32,000 bases of DNA from Candidatus Saccharimonadota bacterium (GCA_963718045.1 OY970350.1:510001-542000), one strand, 5' to 3'; shown: positions 1,680 to 25,550, counted from the stretch's first letter. Numbers and translations: made by a program. Notes: generated by a model not told the origin, from the letters alone.

Positions 1680-3335
1680 CTATTCGCCTTCAATATCTCT
1701 TTCGTTAAATCTTAGAGCACCAATCAATATAAATACTATGGCTATAGCTACAATAATTAGATTTACTGACCAATTAGGATTAACGCTTGGCGCCAGAGAT
1801 ACCTGGTGCAGAAGCGAAGTGTCAAGCAGCCAGTGATTCAATTTAAGTCCAGTGCCGACCAGTTCAATTAGCAGTGACCAAACTAGAACTGCATAAGCAG
1901 CTATGGAAGTCAGTCGGGGATAAAAACCGAAAACCAAAATACCAACCCCAATTAGAAATACAGCCGGGACCAAGGCGTTAATGCTGGCTAAAGTGAGAGT
2001 ATGTAACGATACCCCCGTATTTTGGTCAAGTATCCCAAGCCATATACCAAGAGTTGTTACTATACCAGCCGCAATAACTACTAAAAAGGTTAGGTTTAAT
2101 CTGCCCAGCAGCCATCTCAGTCTGGCGTATGGCTGAACCAGGAAGTTGTCTAAATAGCCCAATGCTTCTTCGCGTCTAGAGGCATTTACGCTATTAGCCG
2201 CCAAGACCATGATAAGTATAATTTGTATTAAGTAGATCATGCCTAGGAATAACAGGGTGGAAGACAGCTTCGCCGTTTGAATGAAGTGCTTTACGGTACG
2301 TTCATAGCCTTTAGATTGGCTGAATGCTTGCCCCGTAGATTTAGTAATTAGGCCATAAATGAGCGAGGTGACAAATATGGCTATCAGCCAGCCTATATTA
2401 GTGCCTCTAGTTAAGCGAACAGCTAAACTGAACGGCGACTTCAGTAACTGGTAGTGCGGTTTGGTGTCAGTTTTATCTGAAATGATGCTCTCCTGGTAGT
2501 CGCGTTTAGAAGCAAAATAAAGAGTTAGAATGAATAGTAGAGCGATTAGTATAGCGAAGGGTATTAGCCAGATTGGATCAGATTGGGACAGGGGCTGAGC
2601 TTTTTCTATCCAGCCTAGAGGCGTGACATTATTAATCCAGTGGGCACTAGTTACATCGCCAATGCCGCGCATTAAATAAAAAATTCCGAGTGTAAAACCG
2701 GCTACAGCTGCGGCCCGGCTGCGGGTTGGCATAAGTTGGGAAGCCATAGCCCCAACCATCAAAAATAAGCCTATCCCGAGTGTAACTACGAAAGCAAAGT
2801 ATAGGGCAGTGTGTGTCCCATAATCTACCCCTTGATGTTTCCCGACAGCAATGAATAAGACGGACATGACTAAGAAGAGCACACCCAAGCTAGTCCAAAG
2901 ACCCGCCAGAATATTTAAAGCCGCTTTTTTTGGGGTAGTCTGCCCGGCAAGTAGTGCTTCAGTGCGTCCAGACTCTTCATCGCCCCTGAAATACTTCGCG
3001 GCCATTAATAGTGCCCATATTGAACCAATAACGACCATCACTACGGCCGTATTCCAGGCTACATAAGCAGCTGTTGAAGAGTTTTGAGGTGCTTTGCCTA
3101 GTAAAAGCTCAATGCCGATATTATTGCTAAAGGTTTCAGCAATTTTCTGACGGGCAATAGCCGTCGGATAAAGATCAACAAAGCCAATTGCTTTGGAAGC
3201 CACATACAAACCAAATACTAGACCCCAGAGTACCGCCCCTTGAACTGTTCGGCGGGCTACAAACCTACCAATAACAGTTTTCGGTGAACGGTATCGGTGT
3301 AATGCTATTTTTGTTTCTGCCAAGGCACTACTCAT
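1680..3335 (-). CDS. ABC-2 type exporter permease, about 12 TM (TnrB3/COG3559-like, putative antibiotic exporter class)
   Basis: 551-aa highly hydrophobic ORF with many predicted TM segments. Its start overlaps the stop of the upstream ATPase gene (TAATG at 3335). Size and pairing match the long ABC-2 permeases partnered with DrrA-like ATPases. Confidence 0.72.
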   Translation of the reverse strand: MSSALAETKIALHRYRSPKTVIGRFVARRTVQGAVLWGLVFGLYVASKAIGFVDLYPTAIARQKIAETFSNNIGIELLLGKAPQNSSTAAYVAWNTAVVMVVIGSIWALLMAAKYFRGDEESGRTEALLAGQTTPKKAALNILAGLWTSLGVLFLVMSVLFIAVGKHQGVDYGTHTALYFAFVVTLGIGLFLMVGAMASQLMPTRSRAAAVAGFTLGIFYLMRGIGDVTSAHWINNVTPLGWIEKAQPLSQSDPIWLIPFAILIALLFILTLYFASKRDYQESIISDKTDTKPHYQLLKSPFSLAVRLTRGTNIGWLIAIFVTSLIYGLITKSTGQAFSQSKGYERTVKHFIQTAKLSSTLLFLGMIYLIQIILIMVLAANSVNASRREEALGYLDNFLVQPYARLRWLLGRLNLTFLVVIAAGIVTTLGIWLGILDQNTGVSLHTLTLASINALVPAVFLIGVGILVFGFYPRLTSIAAYAVLVWSLLIELVGTGLKLNHWLLDTSLLHQVSLAPSVNPNWSVNLIIVAIAIVFILIGALRFNERDIEGE

Positions 3336-4237
3336 TATTTATCTTTCTTAGAGTCAACCTCTTCGTCTCCATATAGTGCCAGAAATAACTCTTCTAGCGA
3401 CGGTTCCCGGCTGAGCAGAGTTTTTGGATGAGCGCCGGCTAGCACTTTTAGTAGTGGTTCAATCGGTCCCCTAACCTGACAGGTTAATTGATGGCCGGTA
3501 ACAGTAACACTGCTGACTCCTTCAATGTGTTCCAGCTTAGGCGGTTCATCAAAAGTTGCCTCAACGGTGACTGCCGAAAGGTGCCGCATCTGTTGTAGCG
3601 TGCCTAGTTCAACTAATTTACCTTTTCTAAGTATGCCTATACGGTCACATAAGGATTCTGCCTCTTCCAGTATATGTGACGACAAAAATATTGTTTGACC
3701 GTTGGACTTGGCTTCCAATACACTTTGTTTAAAAGCTTGCTCCATTATCGGGTCAAGACCGCTGGTCGGTTCATCCATTATGAGCAGTTTAGCCTGGGTA
3801 GACAAAGCAGCAATTAAGTTTATTTTCTGCCTGTTGCCTTTTGAATAGGTCCTAACCTTTCTGTTAGGGTCAAAATCGAAACGCCTAAGAAGCTCTTTTT
3901 GATACTTAAGATCAACCCTGCCATGTGATTTCCCCAGTAAATGGAGAGTCTCAGCACCAGTCAAAGACGGCCAAAAGACTGATTCGCCAGGTACATAGGC
4001 CAGATTTTTGTGAGCTTCGACTTTATCTTTCTGACTGTCTAGGTCAAATATTTCGGCACTGCCGCTAGTCGGATGAATCAGCCCTAAGATTAATCTAATG
4101 GTCGTTGTTTTGCCGGCACCATTAGGTCCCAAGTAGCCAAGTATCTCCCCTACACTAACCTCCAGGTTTAACGGTGCTAAAGCAGTTAAGGAGCCGTAAT
4201 TTTTGGATAGATTTTTAGTTTTTACTGCTATTTCCAT
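3335..4237 (-). CDS. ABC transporter ATP-binding protein (DrrA-like)
   Basis: Walker A GPNGAGKTT, signature-like YSKGNRQK, Walker B LLIMDEPTSGLD, H-loop SSHIL. 300 aa. Confidence 0.92.
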   Translation of the reverse strand: MEIAVKTKNLSKNYGSLTALAPLNLEVSVGEILGYLGPNGAGKTTTIRLILGLIHPTSGSAEIFDLDSQKDKVEAHKNLAYVPGESVFWPSLTGAETLHLLGKSHGRVDLKYQKELLRRFDFDPNRKVRTYSKGNRQKINLIAALSTQAKLLIMDEPTSGLDPIMEQAFKQSVLEAKSNGQTIFLSSHILEEAESLCDRIGILRKGKLVELGTLQQMRHLSAVTVEATFDEPPKLEHIEGVSSVTVTGHQLTCQVRGPIEPLLKVLAGAHPKTLLSREPSLEELFLALYGDEEVDSKKDK

Positions 4238-4296: not shown

Positions 4297-5055
4297 ATGT
4301 CATTTCCGCAGCCAGCTCTTAGAAAAGTACCAGAAATAACTGCCTTATTTTGGATTGTTAAGCTACTTACTACGGCAATGGGTGAAGCGACATCAGATTT
4401 TTTTGTTTTTAAATATAATAAATACCTTGCTGTATTTTTAGGCGGAGTAGTGCTGGCAATTGCTCTGGTAATGCAGTTCTCGGTTCGTAAATACAATGCC
4501 TGGATATATTGGTTTGCAGTAGCAATGGTTGCTGTCTTTGGTACTATGGCTGCCGACGCGCTGCATATTCAGCTTCACATACCATATGTTGTTTCGACTA
4601 TCTTTTTTGCCATTGTTCTGGCAATTGTTTTTATAGTCTGGAAGAAAACCGAGAAAACCTTATCAATCCACAGCATAAATACACGTCGCCGTGAATTATT
4701 CTACTGGCTGACTGTTCTATCGACGTTTGCCCTAGGTACAGCTGCCGGTGATTTAATGGCCACTACTGTCGGACTTGGTTACTTTGGGGCGGGTTTACTA
4801 TTTACAGGTTTATTTGCAATTCCCGGAATCATCTACTTTGTAACCCGAAAACATGAAATCCTCTGGTTTTGGGTTGCCTATGTATTAACTAGGCCGCTTG
4901 GAGCATCTTTTGCAGATTGGACTAGTAAACCCCGCCGTATTAGTGGCCTTGACTACGGGGACGGCCATGTTGCCATTGTTTTAACAATAGTAATTATTAT
5001 CTTTGTGGCATTTCTAGCGGTTAGCCGCGTAGATATTAAAAAAATTAGCAACTAA
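4297..5055 (+). CDS. Polytopic membrane protein, COG4705-like (uncharacterised membrane-anchored protein family)
   Basis: 252-aa ORF with about 7-8 hydrophobic segments and repeated G(E/T)xxxD motifs (MGEATSDF, GTAAGDL, GASFADW). The family assignment is from memory of the motif pattern only. Confidence 0.55.
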   Translation: MSFPQPALRKVPEITALFWIVKLLTTAMGEATSDFFVFKYNKYLAVFLGGVVLAIALVMQFSVRKYNAWIYWFAVAMVAVFGTMAADALHIQLHIPYVVSTIFFAIVLAIVFIVWKKTEKTLSIHSINTRRRELFYWLTVLSTFALGTAAGDLMATTVGLGYFGAGLLFTGLFAIPGIIYFVTRKHEILWFWVAYVLTRPLGASFADWTSKPRRISGLDYGDGHVAIVLTIVIIIFVAFLAVSRVDIKKISN

Positions 5056-5720
5056 GACTTTTGAGCCTCGCTAATACAAAATTCTAATAAGTCTGTCATT
5101 CTAGCTTTTCCCTCAGCAGAATAGGGCTTTGGCAGCCCATTAGCTACCAACCACCTATCAACATTTTCGGTTGAGGGTGGATTGTAAGATGGATGGACTG
5201 ACGTGTGGTGCTTAACTTTAAGTTGTACTTTAGGCTCGCTACCTTCTACGGTTTCATAAAAATTGAAAACAAACCCATCTTCATATAGAGAGTATTCATT
5301 ATCAATATAAGATGTATGCCTAAATAGTAACCAAGTATTCCTAATAGGATTATCACTACTCTCCACTAGGTTGAAGGGAGTATATATATGATCACTGACT
5401 ACCAGTTTGGGTGGAGCAACATGTTCAGGCCACCTTGAATTTGTAACAGTAGGCCATTCCTTTAGTGTTCCAATAGACGTGCTTCTATAATGATGCTTAA
5501 AGCTTTCAACAGGTGTACCCAATGCTCGCTTAACGACATTTGACCAAAAACTACCTTGCTGCCTTGGAGACCTAAAGAATACCTGTCCGTATTCTGGTAA
5601 TATCTGCACCCAACCCCGTTCCACGCTCTCATCATAATCTGGGGGCAATAATCTGTCGACATTAGCCCAGGCCTGCTTAATTTTGGCTGATGGGTCAGCG
5701 GGAAACTCTGGTGTGTTCAT
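5052..5720 (-). CDS. Hypothetical protein (222 aa, Trp/His/Pro-rich, no recognisable domain)
   Basis: Long uninterrupted ORF. Its stop overlaps the stop of the convergent 4297-5055 gene (CTAA). No motif recognised. Confidence 0.5.
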   Translation of the reverse strand: MNTPEFPADPSAKIKQAWANVDRLLPPDYDESVERGWVQILPEYGQVFFRSPRQQGSFWSNVVKRALGTPVESFKHHYRSTSIGTLKEWPTVTNSRWPEHVAPPKLVVSDHIYTPFNLVESSDNPIRNTWLLFRHTSYIDNEYSLYEDGFVFNFYETVEGSEPKVQLKVKHHTSVHPSYNPPSTENVDRWLVANGLPKPYSAEGKARMTDLLEFCISEAQKS

Positions 5721-5794
5721 ATTATACTACCATAACATAAGCAGTGTTATTTTGCAATACTGGAGATCCGCTAAGCTAGCTATATTTCTTAGTC

Positions 5795-6106
5795 TCAAGA
5801 CCCGCTTATTAACGCTTGTAGTTCATCCATAAGCCCATCCACTTCTTCTTCAGATAGGGTAGATGTTACCTGCAGTGTTCGCAGATAGCCATATATATCT
5901 TGAGATAGTCTTACTAACTCATTCTGGTTCGATGTAGGTTTACTATATTCACGAGCAAAGGCTAATGTACTCTTTTTTAAGTTATTTAAGACAATATTGT
6001 CTGTACTAGATGAGCCAATAATGCCTGCAGAAGCACCGCCCATGCGTGTTACGTTAATATTCATAACTCTCTCGATAAATAATGCTAGTTTTTCAGAGTT
6101 TGGCAT
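5795..6106 (-). CDS. Hypothetical protein (103 aa)
   Basis: ORF on the same strand as the lectin-CHAP gene and 111 nt downstream of it. No signal peptide or recognisable motif. Confidence 0.42.
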   Translation of the reverse strand: MPNSEKLALFIERVMNINVTRMGGASAGIIGSSSTDNIVLNNLKKSTLAFAREYSKPTSNQNELVRLSQDIYGYLRTLQVTSTLSEEEVDGLMDELQALISGS

Positions 6107-6217
6107 GGCTAAATTATATCAAAGAAGCGCGTATTAATTCTGTTTAGTCAAAAGTGTAATAAGGGACTACCTTGGACTAGAGCTTACTACTTGATGTTAA
6201 CTAACTGTCTCCCTTCC

Positions 6218-7252
6218 TTAGGTTGAAGAGTTGGGTGACATATAGTACTCAAGCTGGCCCAAGGATGGCAGGTTGGTAGTAGTGTTAGCAGCCATATCAC
6301 CATTGCCGGTAGTCGGGTCAATTACTGCTGAGTTGCCATATATAAAAGTCGGGGTCTTACCGCTGCTAACCACAATTTCTACGTGACCACCAGGATAATC
6401 AAAATAGGCTACGTCCCCTGGCTGAGGAATATAGTCTGACGATGAATCAATTGTGAAGCCCTGGTTAACAATGTTGCTGGCAATGTTTTCATCCCAGCCG
6501 TTATACTCACCACTGCTAAATGGATAGCCTGCTTCCTTATAGACATAGCTGACAAAGTCAGCGCACCACTCCTCATAAGGTGCTCCGGCTGTGTATGTAT
6601 TGAGCAGTGCTTCATGGTTATTTGGTTGGCTGGTCCAGTTAACCCATTCTTTGATGGCATAGCAGGCCACCATCTGCCCTTGGCTGCCGATGCACGGGTA
6701 AGTGCCGTAATTAATGTTAGGTTTCCAGCTTTTACTATCAGACGTTAAACGGTCACAAGAAGTTAGAGTTAATTGTCCGCCTTGCTGAGCACTGCCAGCT
6801 GTTAGACAAAGACTCTTATCCGGATTTAAAAAGCTAGTGTCGTCTCTTAGCCAGACCTGATCAGCGCCGTTATTGCAGCTGTTGATGGTGATCTTTGTAT
6901 CTGAGGAGGCCGTCAGACACATATCTTTATCATGGATAATCTGGGTTAGATTTACCTGCCAGTCCTGGGCAGCGGAGTTATTACAGGGCCACAAATCTAC
7001 CTGGTTGCCTTCGACCAATTTTGATCTGTAGTCATCAAGACAGTAACCTGACCAGCCAGATTTTATGGGACTGCCCGGTGCATTGGCGTGAGAAATGCCA
7101 AGAAACAGCAGGCTGAATATACCGGCGAGGGCCACGATAACCGCCAACATAGAAGTGAGGCGGTACTTCTTTAGAAATGATATATTTGGTTGTTTTAGCT
7201 CTTTGGGCCGTTTATATGTCCGGTGAACCGAGCTTACTTCTCGCATATTCAT
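6218..7252 (-). CDS. Secreted ricin-type beta-trefoil lectin + CHAP-domain peptidoglycan hydrolase
   Basis: N-terminal signal/anchor (MLAVIVALAGIFSLLFLGISHANA). Three Cys-bracketed QxW-type subrepeats (C..LWPC..AQDWQV, CL..INSC..DQVWL, CL..LTSC..SKSWK). C-terminal CHAP motifs with catalytic Cys (EEWCADFVSYVYKEAG) and His (GGHVEIVV). Confidence 0.82.
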   Translation of the reverse strand: MNMREVSSVHRTYKRPKELKQPNISFLKKYRLTSMLAVIVALAGIFSLLFLGISHANAPGSPIKSGWSGYCLDDYRSKLVEGNQVDLWPCNNSAAQDWQVNLTQIIHDKDMCLTASSDTKITINSCNNGADQVWLRDDTSFLNPDKSLCLTAGSAQQGGQLTLTSCDRLTSDSKSWKPNINYGTYPCIGSQGQMVACYAIKEWVNWTSQPNNHEALLNTYTAGAPYEEWCADFVSYVYKEAGYPFSSGEYNGWDENIASNIVNQGFTIDSSSDYIPQPGDVAYFDYPGGHVEIVVSSGKTPTFIYGNSAVIDPTTGNGDMAANTTTNLPSLGQLEYYMSPNSST

Positions 7253-7407
7253 GACTCGATCTTATATGTCCATGATTAAACTAAGCTGTAGTCGAAGTTT
7301 TTATTTTTGAGGGACAAACAATATTATATAACGAACTGGCAAGCGATGAAAAGTTATTCTTAGGTTAAATTAAATAACATAAAATATGCCCTTGCCTTAA
7401 TTAGAAC

Positions 7408-7875
7408 TTATTTCACTATGTTTTGGCTGAGAGCTATCTTAAAAGATTTATTGAACTGCGAGTGCAGGGGTTTAGGCAAATTTTTTGAAGTAAACCAGTC
7501 GATTTCTTCTATCTTATGAGGTTCGCCAATTTTCACCTTATCTGGATCAACTTTAACAGCGTGTATGATAGCTATCCAATGAGTTGGCTGGCCATTCAGC
7601 TCTCTGAAAGCGTCATAGACAGTTAAAAACTTAATCTCCAGCGGTTCGGTAACTAATTCTTCCATTATTTCTCGCTTGATAGCATCTTCAATTGGTTCGC
7701 CAAATTCAATGGCACCGCCGCCAACATCCCAACTCCCCTGTTCATCGCGGGCTTTTTTGCCTCTCTTTTGGAGCAATATGCGTCCCTTGCCGTCATGGAT
7801 AATAAAAGAGGCTGAAATACCGATATGATCTACTCCCCGTCTTAAGTCAGTCTTTTTGTTTGCCACTTTAACCAT
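7408..7875 (-). CDS. NUDIX hydrolase
   Basis: Nudix box GGGAIEFGEPIEDAIKREIMEELV. 155 aa. Confidence 0.85.
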   Translation of the reverse strand: MVKVANKKTDLRRGVDHIGISASFIIHDGKGRILLQKRGKKARDEQGSWDVGGGAIEFGEPIEDAIKREIMEELVTEPLEIKFLTVYDAFRELNGQPTHWIAIIHAVKVDPDKVKIGEPHKIEEIDWFTSKNLPKPLHSQFNKSFKIALSQNIVK

Positions 7876-8361: not shown

Positions 8362-8393
8362 AATATTTCCCGCCTACATACATTACAGACCCA
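8357..8393. repeat. Left terminal inverted repeat (IR-L) of the IS1595-family element
   Basis: attaaaatatttcccgcctacatacattacagaccca equals the reverse complement of 10471-10507 with 4 mismatches. Confidence 0.75.
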
Positions 8394-8403
8394 AAGGGAT
8401 TAA

Positions 8404-8880
8404 ATGACGTTATCTAGTGTTACAATTTATGATATGGATGCAAGCGGTCAACCCTTAGAGTTAAGAACTATGGTTGATACTATTTCGTTGTCGCTTAGCA
8501 CTTATTCAATAACGATGCCAACAGCTGATAGTGGATTAAACAATCTTAGTATTTCGATTAGCCCAAAAGGTATCGACCACTCTAGCCCTCATCAAGCAGA
8601 TAATCACCCGACGGTTTACTATAACCTTGGTTATGGCATTTTGAACGCTGATATTGCATACCCCACACCATCTCAGACAGAAAGTTCGCTTTATTTACAA
8701 AAATATGGTAATGTAATAGTGTACGACAAGTACGATTTTTTTGAACTTTTGACGGACGTTCCATATTTAGCCGAAAACTATCCACATCAAACTATGCGTG
8801 CTGTTGTTTTCTCGCCCTTCAATAATACCGTTAGCACAGTTAGAAGCTACTACTTTATAAGAAGATATGAAGATGAATAA
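8404..8880 (+). CDS. Hypothetical protein, IS passenger gene 1 (158 aa)
   Basis: ORF preceded by an SD-like aaaggga at the inner edge of IR-L. It overlaps the next ORF by 14 nt. No recognisable domain. Confidence 0.5.
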   Translation: MTLSSVTIYDMDASGQPLELRTMVDTISLSLSTYSITMPTADSGLNNLSISISPKGIDHSSPHQADNHPTVYYNLGYGILNADIAYPTPSQTESSLYLQKYGNVIVYDKYDFFELLTDVPYLAENYPHQTMRAVVFSPFNNTVSTVRSYYFIRRYEDE

Positions 8881-9160
8881 ATCTGCCCCGAACACAATTA
8901 ATGACTGGACTATTACATACAGCGAGTATGTTGATACTTTGCATGTGTTTGATAAGTCAATAAACAAAAAATCCAACAAGGAGCTACAAAAAATAAAAGC
9001 AGGACATGTGGTTTATATTTTTGATAAGAATACACACTCGCCTTTAATGCTGGAGGTTGATAATGCTACCCACAACTTCGGTGACGTTGATAAAATGGAT
9101 AAAAAGCTTATAATTCAAAAGGTAAAAGAATTGGTAAATAACTATGGCAGCACAGAATAA
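8867..9160 (+). CDS. Hypothetical small protein, IS passenger gene 2 (DUF2283/YuzE-like at motif level)
   Basis: 97 aa. The pattern WTITYSEYVDTLHVF...GHVVYIFDKN...LMLEVDNA resembles the ITYD..D.LYI...DyD..G.i.GIEi.nA layout of DUF2283 proteins. It overlaps both neighbours. Confidence 0.45.
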   Translation: MKMNKSAPNTINDWTITYSEYVDTLHVFDKSINKKSNKELQKIKAGHVVYIFDKNTHSPLMLEVDNATHNFGDVDKMDKKLIIQKVKELVNNYGSTE

Positions 9161-9422
9161 ACCAGTTAAACTATTATCCAGCGTCCCCGCAGTAGCAGTA
9201 GACGGTCATGGTATAGGGATAGACCCGAATACTGGTGTTGGCAATTTAGTCTTTATACAACTTGTAATGTCTCAGACGAAAGAACAGCCAAAAGATAAAG
9301 AATTAGAGGGCAATGTAGTTTCTAGCGTAAGATTAAGCCTAGAACAACTTGAAGGACTCAATACTGCTCTTACTAATGCTATAAAAAATTACAAAAACAC
9401 CAAAAAAGAAACAAAGAAGTAA
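9144..9422 (+). CDS. Hypothetical small protein, IS passenger gene 3 (DUF3467-like at motif level)
   Basis: 92 aa. The C-terminal VVSSVRLSLEQLEGLNTALTNAIKNYKN resembles the conserved C-terminal helix region of DUF3467. It overlaps the previous ORF by 17 nt. Confidence 0.4.
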   Translation: MAAQNKPVKLLSSVPAVAVDGHGIGIDPNTGVGNLVFIQLVMSQTKEQPKDKELEGNVVSSVRLSLEQLEGLNTALTNAIKNYKNTKKETKK

Positions 9423-9547
9423 CTATTATAGTTATTTCTTGGGTGGTGGAGCGGTTGCGATTTTCTTTAAAGCACGTTTAAAGGTAGTGTCTATTATGTA
9501 AGGCTTTTCACGCTTGAGTTTCTTAGCTGTCACATAACCATTTTAGC

Positions 9548-10435
9548 CTATAAGTTTCTTGTAAGGCAAATGTCGGCCGTTAATTCTAGTAAGCCAGTCA
9601 TCAAAACGCTCACCGCCGTCAACTCCCTAGTGTTCCAGCGATAGCTGTATTCCTTAACATAGAATTGAAGGTGTTTGGGGCTTACGCCGACATAGATGGC
9701 GTCAATTCCGTTCTTTAGATGACTCCAGTATCCCTCAATAGTGTTAGTATGTACTACCCCTTTAGCATATTCACCTTTAGAATGATTGACCCTGTAGTGT
9801 TCATATCCCATGTCAGGGATGAGGTGCTTGTACATAGGGAAGTAATCAGTATGAATAGTAGCTGTAGGGCTTACTGACTTTCTAATCACAGGTTCAACTG
9901 TACCACCAGCTACAAAAGGCATAACTTGAGCCTTTACGCTGCCACCCCTCTCAACCATACCGAATACTGGTACTTTAGTAGTGCCACGACCTGCAACTCT
10001 CTTACCAGCCTTACGATTACCCTCATAAGTCTCATCAATCTCTACAATGCCATCTAAGGGTTTCTCAACGCCATATTCCATAGCGTAACGTATACGGTGA
10101 AGTATGAACCATGCTGTCTTTTGGGTAACATCTAGATACTCAGCCAGTCTTATTGAGCTTATACCCTTCTTTTGTGAGGTTAGAAGGTATACGGCCATGA
10201 ACCACTTTTGTAGTGAGATATGGCTATCGGTGAAGATAGTACCGACTTTAGCTGTAAACTTCTTCCTACAGTCTTTACACTTGAATAATAGGCCATCTTT
10301 AAACTTATATGTATCTACTATGCCACAATGAGGGCAGTAACGGCCATTGAACCATCTAGTCTTTTCGAGGTATACTAGGCACGATTTCTCATCAGGAAAT
10401 TCTTTGTAAAAATTAACTAAATTTAATCCCTTCAT
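9548..10435 (-). CDS. IS1595 family transposase (N-terminal zinc ribbon + ISXO2-like DDE domain)
   Basis: CPHCG...CKDCRKKFTAKVGTIFTDSHISLQKWFMAVYLLTSQKKGISSIRLAEYLDVTQKTAWFILHRIRYAM is the hallmark N-terminus of IS1595/ISXO2-like transposases. 295 aa and apparently intact. Confidence 0.9.
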   Translation of the reverse strand: MKGLNLVNFYKEFPDEKSCLVYLEKTRWFNGRYCPHCGIVDTYKFKDGLLFKCKDCRKKFTAKVGTIFTDSHISLQKWFMAVYLLTSQKKGISSIRLAEYLDVTQKTAWFILHRIRYAMEYGVEKPLDGIVEIDETYEGNRKAGKRVAGRGTTKVPVFGMVERGGSVKAQVMPFVAGGTVEPVIRKSVSPTATIHTDYFPMYKHLIPDMGYEHYRVNHSKGEYAKGVVHTNTIEGYWSHLKNGIDAIYVGVSPKHLQFYVKEYSYRWNTRELTAVSVLMTGLLELTADICLTRNL

Positions 10436-10470
10436 TATGAACCTTTCTACCTCTATTCTATCAAATTATT

Positions 10471-10507
10471 CTGGGTCTGTCAAGTATATAAGCGGGAAAT
10501 ATTTTAA
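10471..10507. repeat. Right terminal inverted repeat (IR-R) of the IS1595-family element
   Basis: tgggtctgtcaagtatataagcgggaaatattttaat. Its reverse complement matches 8357-8393. Confidence 0.75.
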
Positions 10508-10579
10508 TAAATATTATTGACTGTATAACTAATATGTGGCATATTTTGGGTATATAAAGAGATTACTAGGGGAGAACTC

Positions 10580-11263
10580 ATGGTGCCTACGGCGCTACTA
10601 ATTGAAGATAACAGGGCGGTCAACGAGACATTGTCGGCCGCACTTAATAAAAGTTACAATTTAATATCTGTTGGTCTAGGCAATGAGGGGTTAAGTTTAA
10701 TTAAAAGTGAGACGCCAGAGTTAATAATCTTAGATCTAAATTTACCTGATCGATCAGGTCTGAGTATCTGCCGTGAAGCAAGAAAAATTGGCGTTAAGGC
10801 GCCAATTTTAATAGTCAGCGGTGACAGTAGATTATCTACTAAGCTAGAGCTATTTAGCGCCGGAGCTGACGATTACATTGTTAAGCCTTTTTCTTTGGGT
10901 GAACTGGAAGCTAGACTAAAAGCGCTACTAAGGCGCTTAAATACCTATAAGCAGATGTTATCCAGTCCCCGGACCCCTTCGTTAATCTTAGACAGGGCAA
11001 GTGAAAGTGTCAGCCGAGAAGGTGGTGAGCCGATTAGTTTAAGGCACAAAGAGTATGCCATATTGGACTATCTCATACAAAATGCCGGACACTGCGTAAG
11101 CCGGTCAAAGTTAGTTAGCCAAGTTTGGAAAAACAACTCCAAGCCATGGTCTAATACGATCGATGTTCATGTTAACAGCCTGAGAGATAAGATAGATAAA
11201 CCATACCCTAAGCCTTTAATTAGTACTGTGCACGGTGTAGGTTACAGATTAGAGAATAGGTAA
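10580..11263 (+). CDS. OmpR-family response regulator (REC + winged-helix DNA-binding domain)
   Basis: Receiver motifs (LIEDN, ELIILDLNLPDRSG, ILIVSG, KPF) and a C-terminal trans_reg_C pattern (LRHKEYAILDYL...IDVHVNSLRDKI...TVHGVGYRL). SD aggggag upstream. Confidence 0.92.
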   Translation: MVPTALLIEDNRAVNETLSAALNKSYNLISVGLGNEGLSLIKSETPELIILDLNLPDRSGLSICREARKIGVKAPILIVSGDSRLSTKLELFSAGADDYIVKPFSLGELEARLKALLRRLNTYKQMLSSPRTPSLILDRASESVSREGGEPISLRHKEYAILDYLIQNAGHCVSRSKLVSQVWKNNSKPWSNTIDVHVNSLRDKIDKPYPKPLISTVHGVGYRLENR

Positions 11264-11967
11264 TGTCTGGCGGAATATTATTGGTCAAGAAAAAGAATAA
11301 GTCTTCTACCAGCTATTTCTCTGATTGGGATAGAAATCTCTTAAGTTTAATCCATGAGTTAAGCGGTCCGATGACCTCAGCTAGATTAAACTTGGAATCG
11401 TTCGTTGAAAGCGAGGATAGGCAAAGCTTAGCCTTACTTGAGTCCAATCTTAAATTAATGGAAGATTATCTACAGTCAGCCAGGCAGCTCATTAAGAGGC
11501 AGCCTGTGCCAGCTAGGCCATTCTCGGTTAATAAACAGTTGGCAGATATTATTAAGAACTTAAGGCCCGTAGCCAGTCAAAGAGATGTCAGCTTAAACAT
11601 GAACGTCATTGAAGACTGTGCCCTCCATGGCAACTCAACTAGATTTAAGCAGATAATTAGCTGCTTTATCCGAAACGGGATTGAGGCATATGATGACTGT
11701 CTGCATAGCCATAAGTCTGTTACCATTGAGCATTACCATATCCCCTCTTATTTGGTCATTAGCGTAACTGATCACGGCAGCGGTATTACCGAGGAAGACA
11801 AGGCTAAGATTTTTAGGCCTTATTTTTCAACTAAGAGAACTTCCAGCGGCCTGGGTCTTGGTTTAAGCCTGGCTGCCGAATCAATCACCGAAGACTTTGA
11901 CGGACAAGTTAAGGTTGATTCAGACAAAACCCACGGCACCGTCTTTAGCCTGTATTTTGCCCGCTGA
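11263..11967 (+). CDS. Soluble sensor histidine kinase lacking TM and sensor domains
   Basis: H-box LIHELSGPMTSA, N-box FIRNGIEAY, G1 DHGSGI, G2 SSGLGLGLS. Only about 30 aa precede the H-box and there is no hydrophobic segment. The start overlaps the RR stop (TAATG). Confidence 0.86.
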   Translation: MSGGILLVKKKNKSSTSYFSDWDRNLLSLIHELSGPMTSARLNLESFVESEDRQSLALLESNLKLMEDYLQSARQLIKRQPVPARPFSVNKQLADIIKNLRPVASQRDVSLNMNVIEDCALHGNSTRFKQIISCFIRNGIEAYDDCLHSHKSVTIEHYHIPSYLVISVTDHGSGITEEDKAKIFRPYFSTKRTSSGLGLGLSLAAESITEDFDGQVKVDSDKTHGTVFSLYFAR

Positions 11968-25386: not shown

Positions 25387-25462
25387 TGGTGGAGCATGGC
25401 AGAATCGAACTGCCAATCTCTGCAATGCGAATGCAGCGCTCTACCAACTGAGCTAATGCCCC
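25387..25462 (-). tRNA. tRNA-Ala (anticodon CGC), CCA encoded
   Basis: The reverse complement GGGGCATTAGCTCAGTTGGTAGAGCGCTGCATTCGCATTGCAGAGATTGGCAGTTCGATTCTGCCATGCTCCACCA folds as a 76-nt cloverleaf with a G3:U70 Ala identity pair and anticodon loop TTCGCAT. Confidence 0.92.
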
Positions 25463-25473
25463 GTATTTCAGTA

Positions 25474-25550
25474 TGGTGGAGCATATCGGGATCGAACCGA
25501 TGACCTCATCCGTGCCACGGATGCGCGCTAGCCAGCTGCGCCAATGCCCC
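25474..25550 (-). tRNA. tRNA-Ala (anticodon GGC), CCA encoded
   Basis: The reverse complement GGGGCATTGGCGCAGCTGGCTAGCGCGCATCCGTGGCACGGATGAGGTCATCGGTTCGATCCCGATATGCTCCACCA folds as a 77-nt cloverleaf with G3:U70 and anticodon loop GTGGCAC. Confidence 0.9.

Follow-up and report, generated by a model that had tools for sequence, protein, structure and literature searches.

What is the function of a secreted lectin-hydrolase in a lineage of ultra-small episymbiont-type bacteria, at whose cell wall is it directed, and do the two small genes that follow it on the same strand belong with it? These questions are raised by a 32,000-nucleotide (nt) stretch of the genome of a Candidatus Saccharimonadota bacterium (GCA_963718045.1, OY970350.1:510001–542000), referred to here as the window. 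In it, a gene for a 344-amino acid (aa) protein that combines a ricin-type lectin module with a CHAP module (the lectin-CHAP gene; 7252..6218, minus strand) is followed by open reading frames (ORFs) of 103 aa (orf103; 6106..5795, minus strand) and 222 aa (orf222; 5720..5052, minus strand), with intergenic gaps of 111 nt between lectin-CHAP and orf103 and 74 nt between orf103 and orf222. An initial annotation of the sequence had proposed that the three genes form a wall-targeting effector locus. Our analysis indicates that the lectin-CHAP protein is probably an exported, lectin-docked peptidoglycan hydrolase, with a slight leaning towards the organism's own wall, and that it is encoded beside two unrelated, lineage-specific cytoplasmic proteins. 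How Patescibacteria recognise and exploit their hosts is largely unknown, and the soil and peat lineages are without cultures; the lectin-CHAP protein is a concrete candidate for coupling glycan recognition to peptidoglycan cleavage, and one that can be expressed recombinantly.

Domain structure of the lectin-CHAP protein

The protein begins with a basic, Lys/Arg-rich tail (aa 1–33; 7154..7252, minus strand) that is predicted to be cytoplasmic and to provide the n-region of an export signal, and that is disordered in the AlphaFold2 (AF2) model. A weakly conserved start, M-x-I-R-E..S..R, among homologues supports the first ATG as the start codon. The tail leads into a hydrophobic helix ending in a small-x-small motif (S-H-A), which were delineated by Kyte–Doolittle analysis and the AF2 model (aa 34–56; 7085..7153, minus strand). 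Hydrophobicity peaks at aa 35–53 with a 19-residue mean of 2.75, and the model places a helix at residues 32–52. The S/T-H-A motif at aa 54–56 carries Ser or Thr at position −3 in 16 of 23 sequences, His at −2 in 20 and Ala at −1 in 19. This N-terminal segment would act either as a signal anchor or as a long cleavable signal peptide, of which the latter is made more likely by the conserved small side chains at −3 and −1.

The α, β and γ subdomains of a ricin-type/CBM13 β-trefoil follow (aa 60–178; 6719..7075, minus strand), as identified from Pfam, Protein Data Bank (PDB) and model comparisons. The Ricin_B_lectin family (PF00652) matched residues 63–168 with 59 bits (E = 6.8e-16; cut-off, 29 bits), and searches of PDB sequences returned ricin-B chains and Streptomyces CBM13 modules (E = 2e-9 to 4e-8). 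The module was modelled with predicted local distance difference test (pLDDT) values of 80–93, and the best Foldseek match was the CBM13 xylan-binding domain of Streptomyces lividans (1knl; E = 1.3e-8, target-normalised template modelling (TM) score of 0.83, 28% identity); further CBM13 modules and ricin-B chains of plants ranked next. Three repeats are present, QDW (aa 96–98), QVW (aa 132–134) and KSW (aa 174–176); the last is a degenerate repeat, with Q/E/K-x-W as its family-wide form. The pairs Cys71–Cys90, Cys112–Cys126 and Cys149–Cys166 are invariant and would provide one disulfide per subdomain, and a fourth pair lies in the linker (Cys187 in 20 of 23 sequences; Cys197 invariant).

The α subdomain retains Asp73 (22/23), Trp88 (19/23) and Gln96 (23/23) of the Gln96-x-Trp98 motif, whereas Thr, Ser or Ala takes the place of the sugar-site Asp in the β and γ subdomains. 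Because only the α subdomain keeps the Asp and the aromatic residue together with Q-x-W, at most one sugar site is plausible. CBM13 modules typically use several subsites. The lectin module resembles the Streptomyces CBM13 modules of xylanase 10A (1knl/1xyf) and β-L-arabinopyranosidase (3a21) in fold (TM-score of 0.83, 28–30% identity), in its threefold Q-x-W repeat and in having one disulfide per subdomain, but it differs from them in being fused to a peptidase/amidase rather than a glycosidase, in keeping the Asp and the aromatic residue in the α subdomain only, and in having Ala for the canonical Asn. Its identity to Streptomyces CBM13 modules overall (28–32%) is no higher than that to plant ricin-B chains, so that sequence identity does not discriminate between a transfer from Actinobacteria and another origin of the module.

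The C-terminal part of the protein (aa 186–344; 6221..6697, minus strand) comprises a CHAP module flanked by a helical extension on its N-terminal side and by a C-terminal tail, as delineated from Pfam, the alignment and the model. The CHAP family (PF05257) matched residues 227–307 with 38 bits (E = 2.4e-9; cut-off, 26 bits). All 23 sequences have Cys230 and His290, Glu292 is likewise invariant, and a conserved Asn or Asp at position 307 (Asn in 13, Asp in 10) lies 17 residues past His290, which we take to be the same spacing as that between the His and the third catalytic residue of LysK. The AF2 model, which is of moderate confidence in this region, places Cys230 at the N-terminus of a helix (aa 230–240) and His290 on a strand (aa 289–291), a layout consistent with a papain-like arrangement, and the catalytic His of LysK aligns with His290 in a weak match (E = 0.12). 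The tail carries the conserved pattern IDPTTGNG...YY-SP. Judged from the alignment, the CHAP module is a divergent subfamily with its own helical N-terminal extension and conserved C-terminal tail. Among 23 diverse family members, the mean pairwise identity was 0.72 in the CHAP core versus 0.47 in the lectin module.

The same dock-then-cut logic is found in modular Gram-positive CHAP hydrolases, including LysM-CHAP autolysins, LysK (CHAP and SH3b) and SEML1_0416 of Southlakia epibionticum (LysM and CHAP), with which the protein shares predicted export, a wall-binding module and a Cys-His CHAP module. It departs from them in that targeting would be by a ricin-type/CBM13 β-trefoil instead of LysM, SH3b, GW or choline-binding repeats, in that the lectin is N-terminal and the CHAP module C-terminal, and in that the CHAP module is extended at both ends and bears only a weak likeness to solved CHAP structures (E = 0.1–0.5). 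Ricin-type/CBM13 β-trefoils are known to bind non-peptidoglycan sugars. By sequence, the architecture is a recombination of well-known modules that displays the testable hallmarks of both Pfam families. The initial annotation had described a signal or anchor sequence on an extracytoplasmic protein, a three-repeat QxW β-trefoil and a C-terminal CHAP amidase/endopeptidase, and each of these assignments is upheld by the hydrophobic helix, by the repeats together with the Pfam and fold matches, and by a CHAP match above the cut-off with an intact Cys230/His290 pair, respectively.

Distribution of the lectin-CHAP family

A word-indexed search returned 485 homologues of the lectin-CHAP protein at E ≤ 0.001. 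The best 120 of these range from 291 to 376 aa, mostly ~330–345 aa, nearly all have the same two-domain architecture, and their named sources are mostly Candidatus Saccharimonadales, Saccharibacteria or Patescibacteria. In a collection with one genome per GTDB species, 378 matching stretches were found, and 78 of these loci were retrieved with up to 10 kb on either side (loci and related contigs are given L numbers below). The retrieved loci come almost entirely from metagenome-assembled genomes (MAGs) of Saccharibacteria from soil, bog, palsa and peat. Lectin-CHAP is therefore a large, well-conserved family that is common to hundreds of related genomes, and the names of the homologues and related loci place the window in the Saccharimonadales (Saccharibacteria/TM7), in keeping with the episymbiont-type organism that had been supposed from the sequence. 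Some public annotations name family members "ricin-type beta-trefoil lectin domain protein", and a literature search found no publication that deals with the family, with any ricin-CHAP enzyme or with Patescibacterial CHAP domains.

Three irregularities were seen among the retrieved loci. In L067, from a Microflora Danica soil MAG, the lectin-CHAP gene (~10001–11046) is split into ORFs of 236 and 169 aa, which represents either a frameshift pseudogene or a sequencing error. L059 (OY969576.1) carries a homologue of 42% identity on a 1.9-Mb chromosome, which is large for a Saccharibacterium. A few loci are labelled Chlamydiae, Dormibacterota, Verrucomicrobiia or Sulfotelmatobacter, probably through binning errors.

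Proposed mechanism and target wall

In the mechanism that we propose, the 344-aa protein would be exported via the Sec pathway by its long N-terminal signal, and the lectin module would then dock the enzyme on a non-peptidoglycan glycan displayed on the wall. With Cys230 as the nucleophile, His290 as the base and Asn/Asp307 as the likely third residue, the CHAP module would cut peptidoglycan in its vicinity. The bond attacked would be the MurNAc-L-Ala amide or a peptide bond of the stem or cross-bridge, and cleavage would loosen the wall locally. If the wall is the organism's own, the enzyme would be a wall-remodelling autolysin.

To define the genomic neighbourhood, ORFs of at least 70 aa were called in all 78 loci and clustered by blastp (E < 1e-8, ≥50% coverage). 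Although the neighbours of lectin-CHAP differ greatly in their order from locus to locus, three associations recur, and two of them bear on the target wall. First, some or all of four glycosylation genes lie within 5 kb of lectin-CHAP in 24 of the 78 loci, in at least five arrangements (L040, L049, L051–L057, L061–L064, L077, L016, L021, L023, L067, L018, L029, L010, L030, L005 and L022). They encode a GT2 protein that resembles polyprenyl-phosphate-sugar synthases (AglJ, PgfS and dolichyl-phosphate hexose transferase), a 508-aa polytopic membrane protein without a family match, perhaps a transferase of the GT-C type, a flippase-like protein of the MprF type and an NAD-dependent epimerase. Together, the four genes look like an extracytoplasmic glycosylation machinery for surface proteins or polymers. 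Second, an OmpR-type response regulator, usually accompanied by a histidine kinase, is encoded upstream on the opposite strand in 17 loci (at 10580–11967 in the window; also L002, L003, L060, L066, L069, L071–L073, L075, L080 and others). The regulators of two sub-clades are only ~35% identical, so that their orthology is uncertain, and in one distant sub-clade the regulator gene comes as close as 125–340 bp to lectin-CHAP. This linkage recalls the WalRK-type control of autolysins.

Provided that the protein is a hydrolase of the proposed kind, we put the chance that it acts on the organism's own wall at slightly better than even and the chance that it acts on a host wall at slightly short of even. 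The slight lean towards the own wall is due to the linkage, in many relatives, of the gene to the PgfS/AglJ-like glycosylation cluster and to a two-component regulator. Lectin-CHAP is also under strong purifying selection, surrounded by housekeeping genes and apparently mostly single-copy.

It is possible, though doubtful, that lectin-CHAP is instead a host-wall-opening enzyme of soil and peat Saccharimonadales. In that case, the released protein would read a wall polysaccharide of the host, with the galactan-, arabinan- or rhamnose-type polymers of Actinobacteria as candidate ligands, the CHAP module would open or harvest host peptidoglycan at the attachment site, and the lectin would help to set the host range. 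The lineage itself agrees with such a role, as cultivated Saccharimonadales are obligate epibionts, and so does published work in which essential Southlakia surface proteins bearing glycan-binding domains are suggested to have host glycans as their targets (PMC10633639) and host wall sugars modulate the binding of TM7x (PMC11623550). The conserved small-x-small motif past the helix suggests cleavage and release, and the lectin evolves faster than the CHAP module (0.47 versus 0.72 identity), as would be expected if the ligand varied with the host. In both structure and sequence, the lectin comes closest to CBM13 and ricin-domain proteins of Streptomyces, but ricin domains are very abundant in Streptomyces, so that this likeness is weak evidence.

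Transposon sequencing (Tn-seq) of Southlakia bears on the host-directed role in both directions. The essential CHAP protein encoded beside FtsEX is a separate helical-hairpin protein (read here as PcsB-like), and because it is separate, lectin-CHAP need not be a housekeeping division enzyme. In contrast, Southlakia can grow on its host without its LysM-CHAP protein, which was compared with lectin-CHAP at the level of domain type and is analogous to it. A host-directed role is further opposed by the high conservation, apparently mostly single copy and purifying selection of a gene that lies among housekeeping genes, by its recurrence beside the organism's own surface-glycosylation genes, and by the lack of a secretion or delivery apparatus nearby in the window. 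Were the host-directed role to prove true, the lectin module would be a possible probe for hosts in environmental samples.

Several observations weigh against the reading of lectin-CHAP as a glycan-docked hydrolase of the organism's own wall. Both peptidoglycan cleavage and glycan binding by the family are predictions. The equivalent of ricin Asn46, the canonical sugar-contacting Asn of subdomain 1-α, is Ala95 in 21 of 23 sequences, a replacement that leaves glycan binding putative. By sequence, the CHAP module resembles solved CHAP structures weakly (LysK, E = 0.12; Tse1, E ~0.5–0.8), and its model is only moderately confident (pLDDT ~47–87). The window has no glycosylation cluster and no regulator directly adjacent to the gene, and the gene-linkage counts, which are uncorrected for shared ancestry among loci, are treated as leads. 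Finally, a host-directed role is in equally good agreement with the faster evolution of the lectin, with an episymbiotic way of life and with CBM13 relatives that are Actinobacteria-like.

Relationship of orf103 and orf222 to the hydrolase

All three ORFs are real genes and not chance ORFs, as is evident from their ratios of non-synonymous to synonymous substitution (dN/dS) and from the existence of same-length homologues elsewhere for each of them. Relative to L080, which is ~92% identical to the window, lectin-CHAP had a dN/dS (Nei–Gojobori) of 0.11, orf103 one of 0.16 and orf222 one of 0.24, and these values fall within the range of the flanking housekeeping genes. Neither small protein has a significant family match in Pfam, NCBIfam, PHROGs or PADLOC, and neither they nor other members of their two families have a signal peptide or membrane segment (Kyte–Doolittle maxima of 0.76 for orf103 and 0.62 for orf222). 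The orf103 and orf222 products are predicted to be soluble cytoplasmic proteins, and we judge both to be lineage-specific and unrelated to the hydrolase.

Homologues of orf103 fall into 12 clusters of 52–89% identity, all of which share a Gly-rich N-terminal motif, RMGGAxAGIxGxSGxD, followed by a conserved helical C-terminal part. Some gene callers start orf103 at Met15 (89 aa), and the first 14 residues are conserved among homologues. For orf222, a word-indexed search found one non-identical cluster (61% identity, L081), an exhaustive search found 23 representatives, ~20 of which are of similar length and have 24–41% identity, and a metagenome scan with a reduced alignment led to two loci. 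Pfam gave no match for 22 members of the orf222 family, and a profile search against PDB sequences found nothing. The AF2 model of orf222 has a pLDDT of 86.8 and a predicted TM-score (pTM) of 0.82, and Foldseek searches of the PDB and BFVD with this model gave no match with an E-value under 0.04, all TM-scores being lower than 0.25, so the family may have a previously unseen fold.

The co-occurrence of the three genes was assessed in relatives. tblastn searches with orf103 and orf222 against the 78 lectin-CHAP loci returned nothing. The 77 loci outside the clade of the window yielded 1,392 ORFs, which were also searched with profile hidden Markov models (HMMs) of the two families. The orf222 profile had no match among these ORFs, and the orf103 profile had one weak match (E = 9e-7), in L048, on the opposite strand and four genes from lectin-CHAP, which is about the chance expectation for stretches of 20 kb in ~0.8-Mb genomes. 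All three genes together were found only within the clade of the window, on contigs of ~92–100% identity from several peat and soil samples, among them JGI 3300034091 and 3300033405; in L002 (83% identity), both ORFs are absent and an IS3-family element and an EamA-type transporter gene occupy the corresponding position.

Conversely, both small genes occur elsewhere on their own. The one non-identical orf222 homologue of the word-indexed search (61%, L081) sits between a sortase gene and a NUDIX gene, those in L090, L091 and L093 (25–35%) sit in three further contexts, and no CHAP gene or orf103 homologue lies near any of the four. The only neighbour that these contexts have in common with the window is a NUDIX gene, in two of the four. 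Similarly, the orf103 homologues in L088 (81%), L082 (77%) and L083/L084 (58%) sit in other contexts; no lectin-CHAP or orf222 gene lies near those in L082 and L088, and those in L082, L083 and L088 have no neighbour in common with the window, L083 and L084 being uninformative on the upstream side, where they reach the contig end. Counting the window, three of the five independent contexts have a NUDIX gene no more than a few genes from the orf222-family member (window, 7408–7875; L081, 8732–9160; L091, 7280–7627). The three NUDIX proteins are 30–35% identical to each other, and since NUDIX paralogues are common, this proximity could be due to chance.

According to the initial annotation, orf103 and/or orf222 would serve as immunity or accessory genes of the hydrolase in a three-gene effector locus, an arrangement that we now consider highly unlikely. 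The description of two same-strand downstream ORFs lacking recognisable domains was accurate, the genes are closely spaced (111 and 74 nt) with no terminator-like site between them on that strand, all sampled genomes of the closest clade retain the full trio, and a distant orf103-family member is located ~1.6 kb from lectin-CHAP in L048. This last case, as one match in 77 loci of ~20 kb, is about what chance would give. The genes do not co-occur outside one species-level clade of ~92% identity and the linkage is gone at 83% (L002), each small ORF has homologues that are accompanied neither by the hydrolase nor by the other ORF, and neither product has a signal peptide, a membrane segment or any resemblance to a wall-modifying enzyme.

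The regulatory sequences also bear on the effector-locus proposal. A promoter-like site (TTTTCA-18-TATAAT, 10/12 matches; a consensus match only) lies at 7323..7352 on the minus strand, ~70 nt 5′ of the lectin-CHAP start codon, and its surroundings are nearly identical in L080. Since −10-like boxes that are conserved between the window and L080 also lie directly 5′ of orf103 and of orf222, the sequence suggests that each has a promoter of its own, which speaks against a single three-gene unit. A scan of the coding strand found no intrinsic terminators between the three genes, a result compatible with co-transcription and with separate transcription alike.

Comparison with known effector–immunity pairs leads to a similar view. 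Lysostaphin with Lif/Epr and the type VI secretion system (T6SS) pair Tse1/Tsi1 also consist of a hydrolase with small same-strand downstream genes, and Tse1 was among the weakest CHAP matches, but the conserved adjacency of those pairs is absent here, the small proteins are predicted to be cytoplasmic and without an enzyme signature, and genes for a T6SS or for bacteriocin export are absent. Lif/Epr, which confers immunity to lysostaphin, is a FemABX-type enzyme of the cytoplasm, so a missing signal peptide cannot by itself exclude immunity. The lack of conserved linkage (0/77 loci for orf222 and one weak match in 77 for orf103) is the stronger, and the decisive, argument against an immunity role. 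What survives of the initial annotation is a wall-targeting lectin-hydrolase in an episymbiont lineage, and what does not is the immunity or accessory role of its neighbours, for which conserved linkage is lacking; the initial annotation had itself named such a lack beside lectin-CHAP homologues as grounds for refutation. The apparent three-gene toxin–immunity locus is a coincidence of gene arrangement within a single species-level clade, and efforts to dock the two small ORFs or to co-express them would be unlikely to pay off.

Linkage to a TraD/TrwB-like ATPase and other assignments

The third recurrent neighbour of lectin-CHAP is a TraD/TrwB-like ATPase of 620–780 aa with DUF87, TrwB_AAD_bind, TraG-D_C and TraD-like matches. 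It is the next same-strand gene in L003, L004, L006, L007, L008, L014 and L060, lies four genes on in L002 (13432–15594) and lies six genes downstream in the clade of the window (L080, 17281–19509; L094, 15758–17986), just past the left edge of the window itself. One could suppose that lectin-CHAP makes a local hole for a type IV secretion system (T4SS) or similar machine that includes this coupling-protein-like ATPase, as VirB1, TraG and PrgK would do, but such a helper role is very improbable. The VirB1-like hydrolases TraG (pIP501) and PrgK (pCF10) are likewise membrane-proximal CHAP proteins, and a coupling-protein-like ATPase is adjacent to lectin-CHAP in the clade nearest to that of the window; moreover, T4SS hydrolases of monoderms commonly carry CHAP, and Patescibacteria often have no recognisable VirB1 (PMC12102498). 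The adjacency is, however, limited to one sub-clade (8 of 78 loci), six unrelated genes separate lectin-CHAP from the ATPase in the clade of the window, and no VirB4, VirB6 or pilin genes lie beside lectin-CHAP in these loci. The protein also differs from TraG and PrgK in having no lytic transglycosylase or muramidase module and no surrounding T4SS cluster, and Patescibacterial homologues of the type IV coupling protein (T4CP) are mostly far from virB4 and may have other roles (PMC12102498). With the ATPase as the only such gene nearby, in 8 of 78 loci, and no other T4SS genes seen, lectin-CHAP was not classed as a VirB1-like T4SS hydrolase. The isolated TraD/TrwB-like ATPase itself fits the published pattern of T4CP genes far from virB4 (PMC12102498).

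Four further assignments were rejected. The lectin-CHAP protein has a weak PHROG endolysin match (E = 1e-5), but tblastn found no relatives among 50,697 phage records, none were found in IMG/VR and the neighbours are housekeeping genes, and a phage endolysin or prophage origin was therefore discarded. Lectin-CHAP does not correspond to a PcsB-type, FtsEX-coupled hydrolase, as its N-terminal module is a β-trefoil and not a coiled coil; an ABC pair near the locus in the window (1680–4237) was not specifically checked for FtsEX likeness. A two-gene module of orf103 and orf222, such as a toxin–antitoxin pair, was rejected in view of the lack of co-occurrence outside the clade of the window. A defence system was dismissed since none of the three proteins had a PADLOC match.

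Other features of the window

The locus is bordered 5′ of lectin-CHAP by the NUDIX hydrolase gene on the same strand (7875..7408, minus strand) and at its other end by a DUF347 membrane-protein gene (4297–5055, plus strand) that is convergent with orf222. The 3′ ends of the DUF347 gene and orf222 overlap by 4 nt, including the orf222 stop codon, and the junction is without a terminator-like structure.

Relative to L080, the window carries an insertion of ~2.2 kb (8362–10579) between the genes for a 146-aa membrane protein and the response regulator. The insertion contains three small ORFs (158, 97 and 92 aa) without a family match and an IS1595-family transposase gene (9548–10435, minus strand; Zn_ribbon_IS1595 and DDE_Tnp_IS1595), and it is also present in contigs of other samples (L094–L096). 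Elsewhere in the window, two adjacent tRNA-Ala genes with the anticodons CGC and GGC are located at 25387–25550 on the minus strand.

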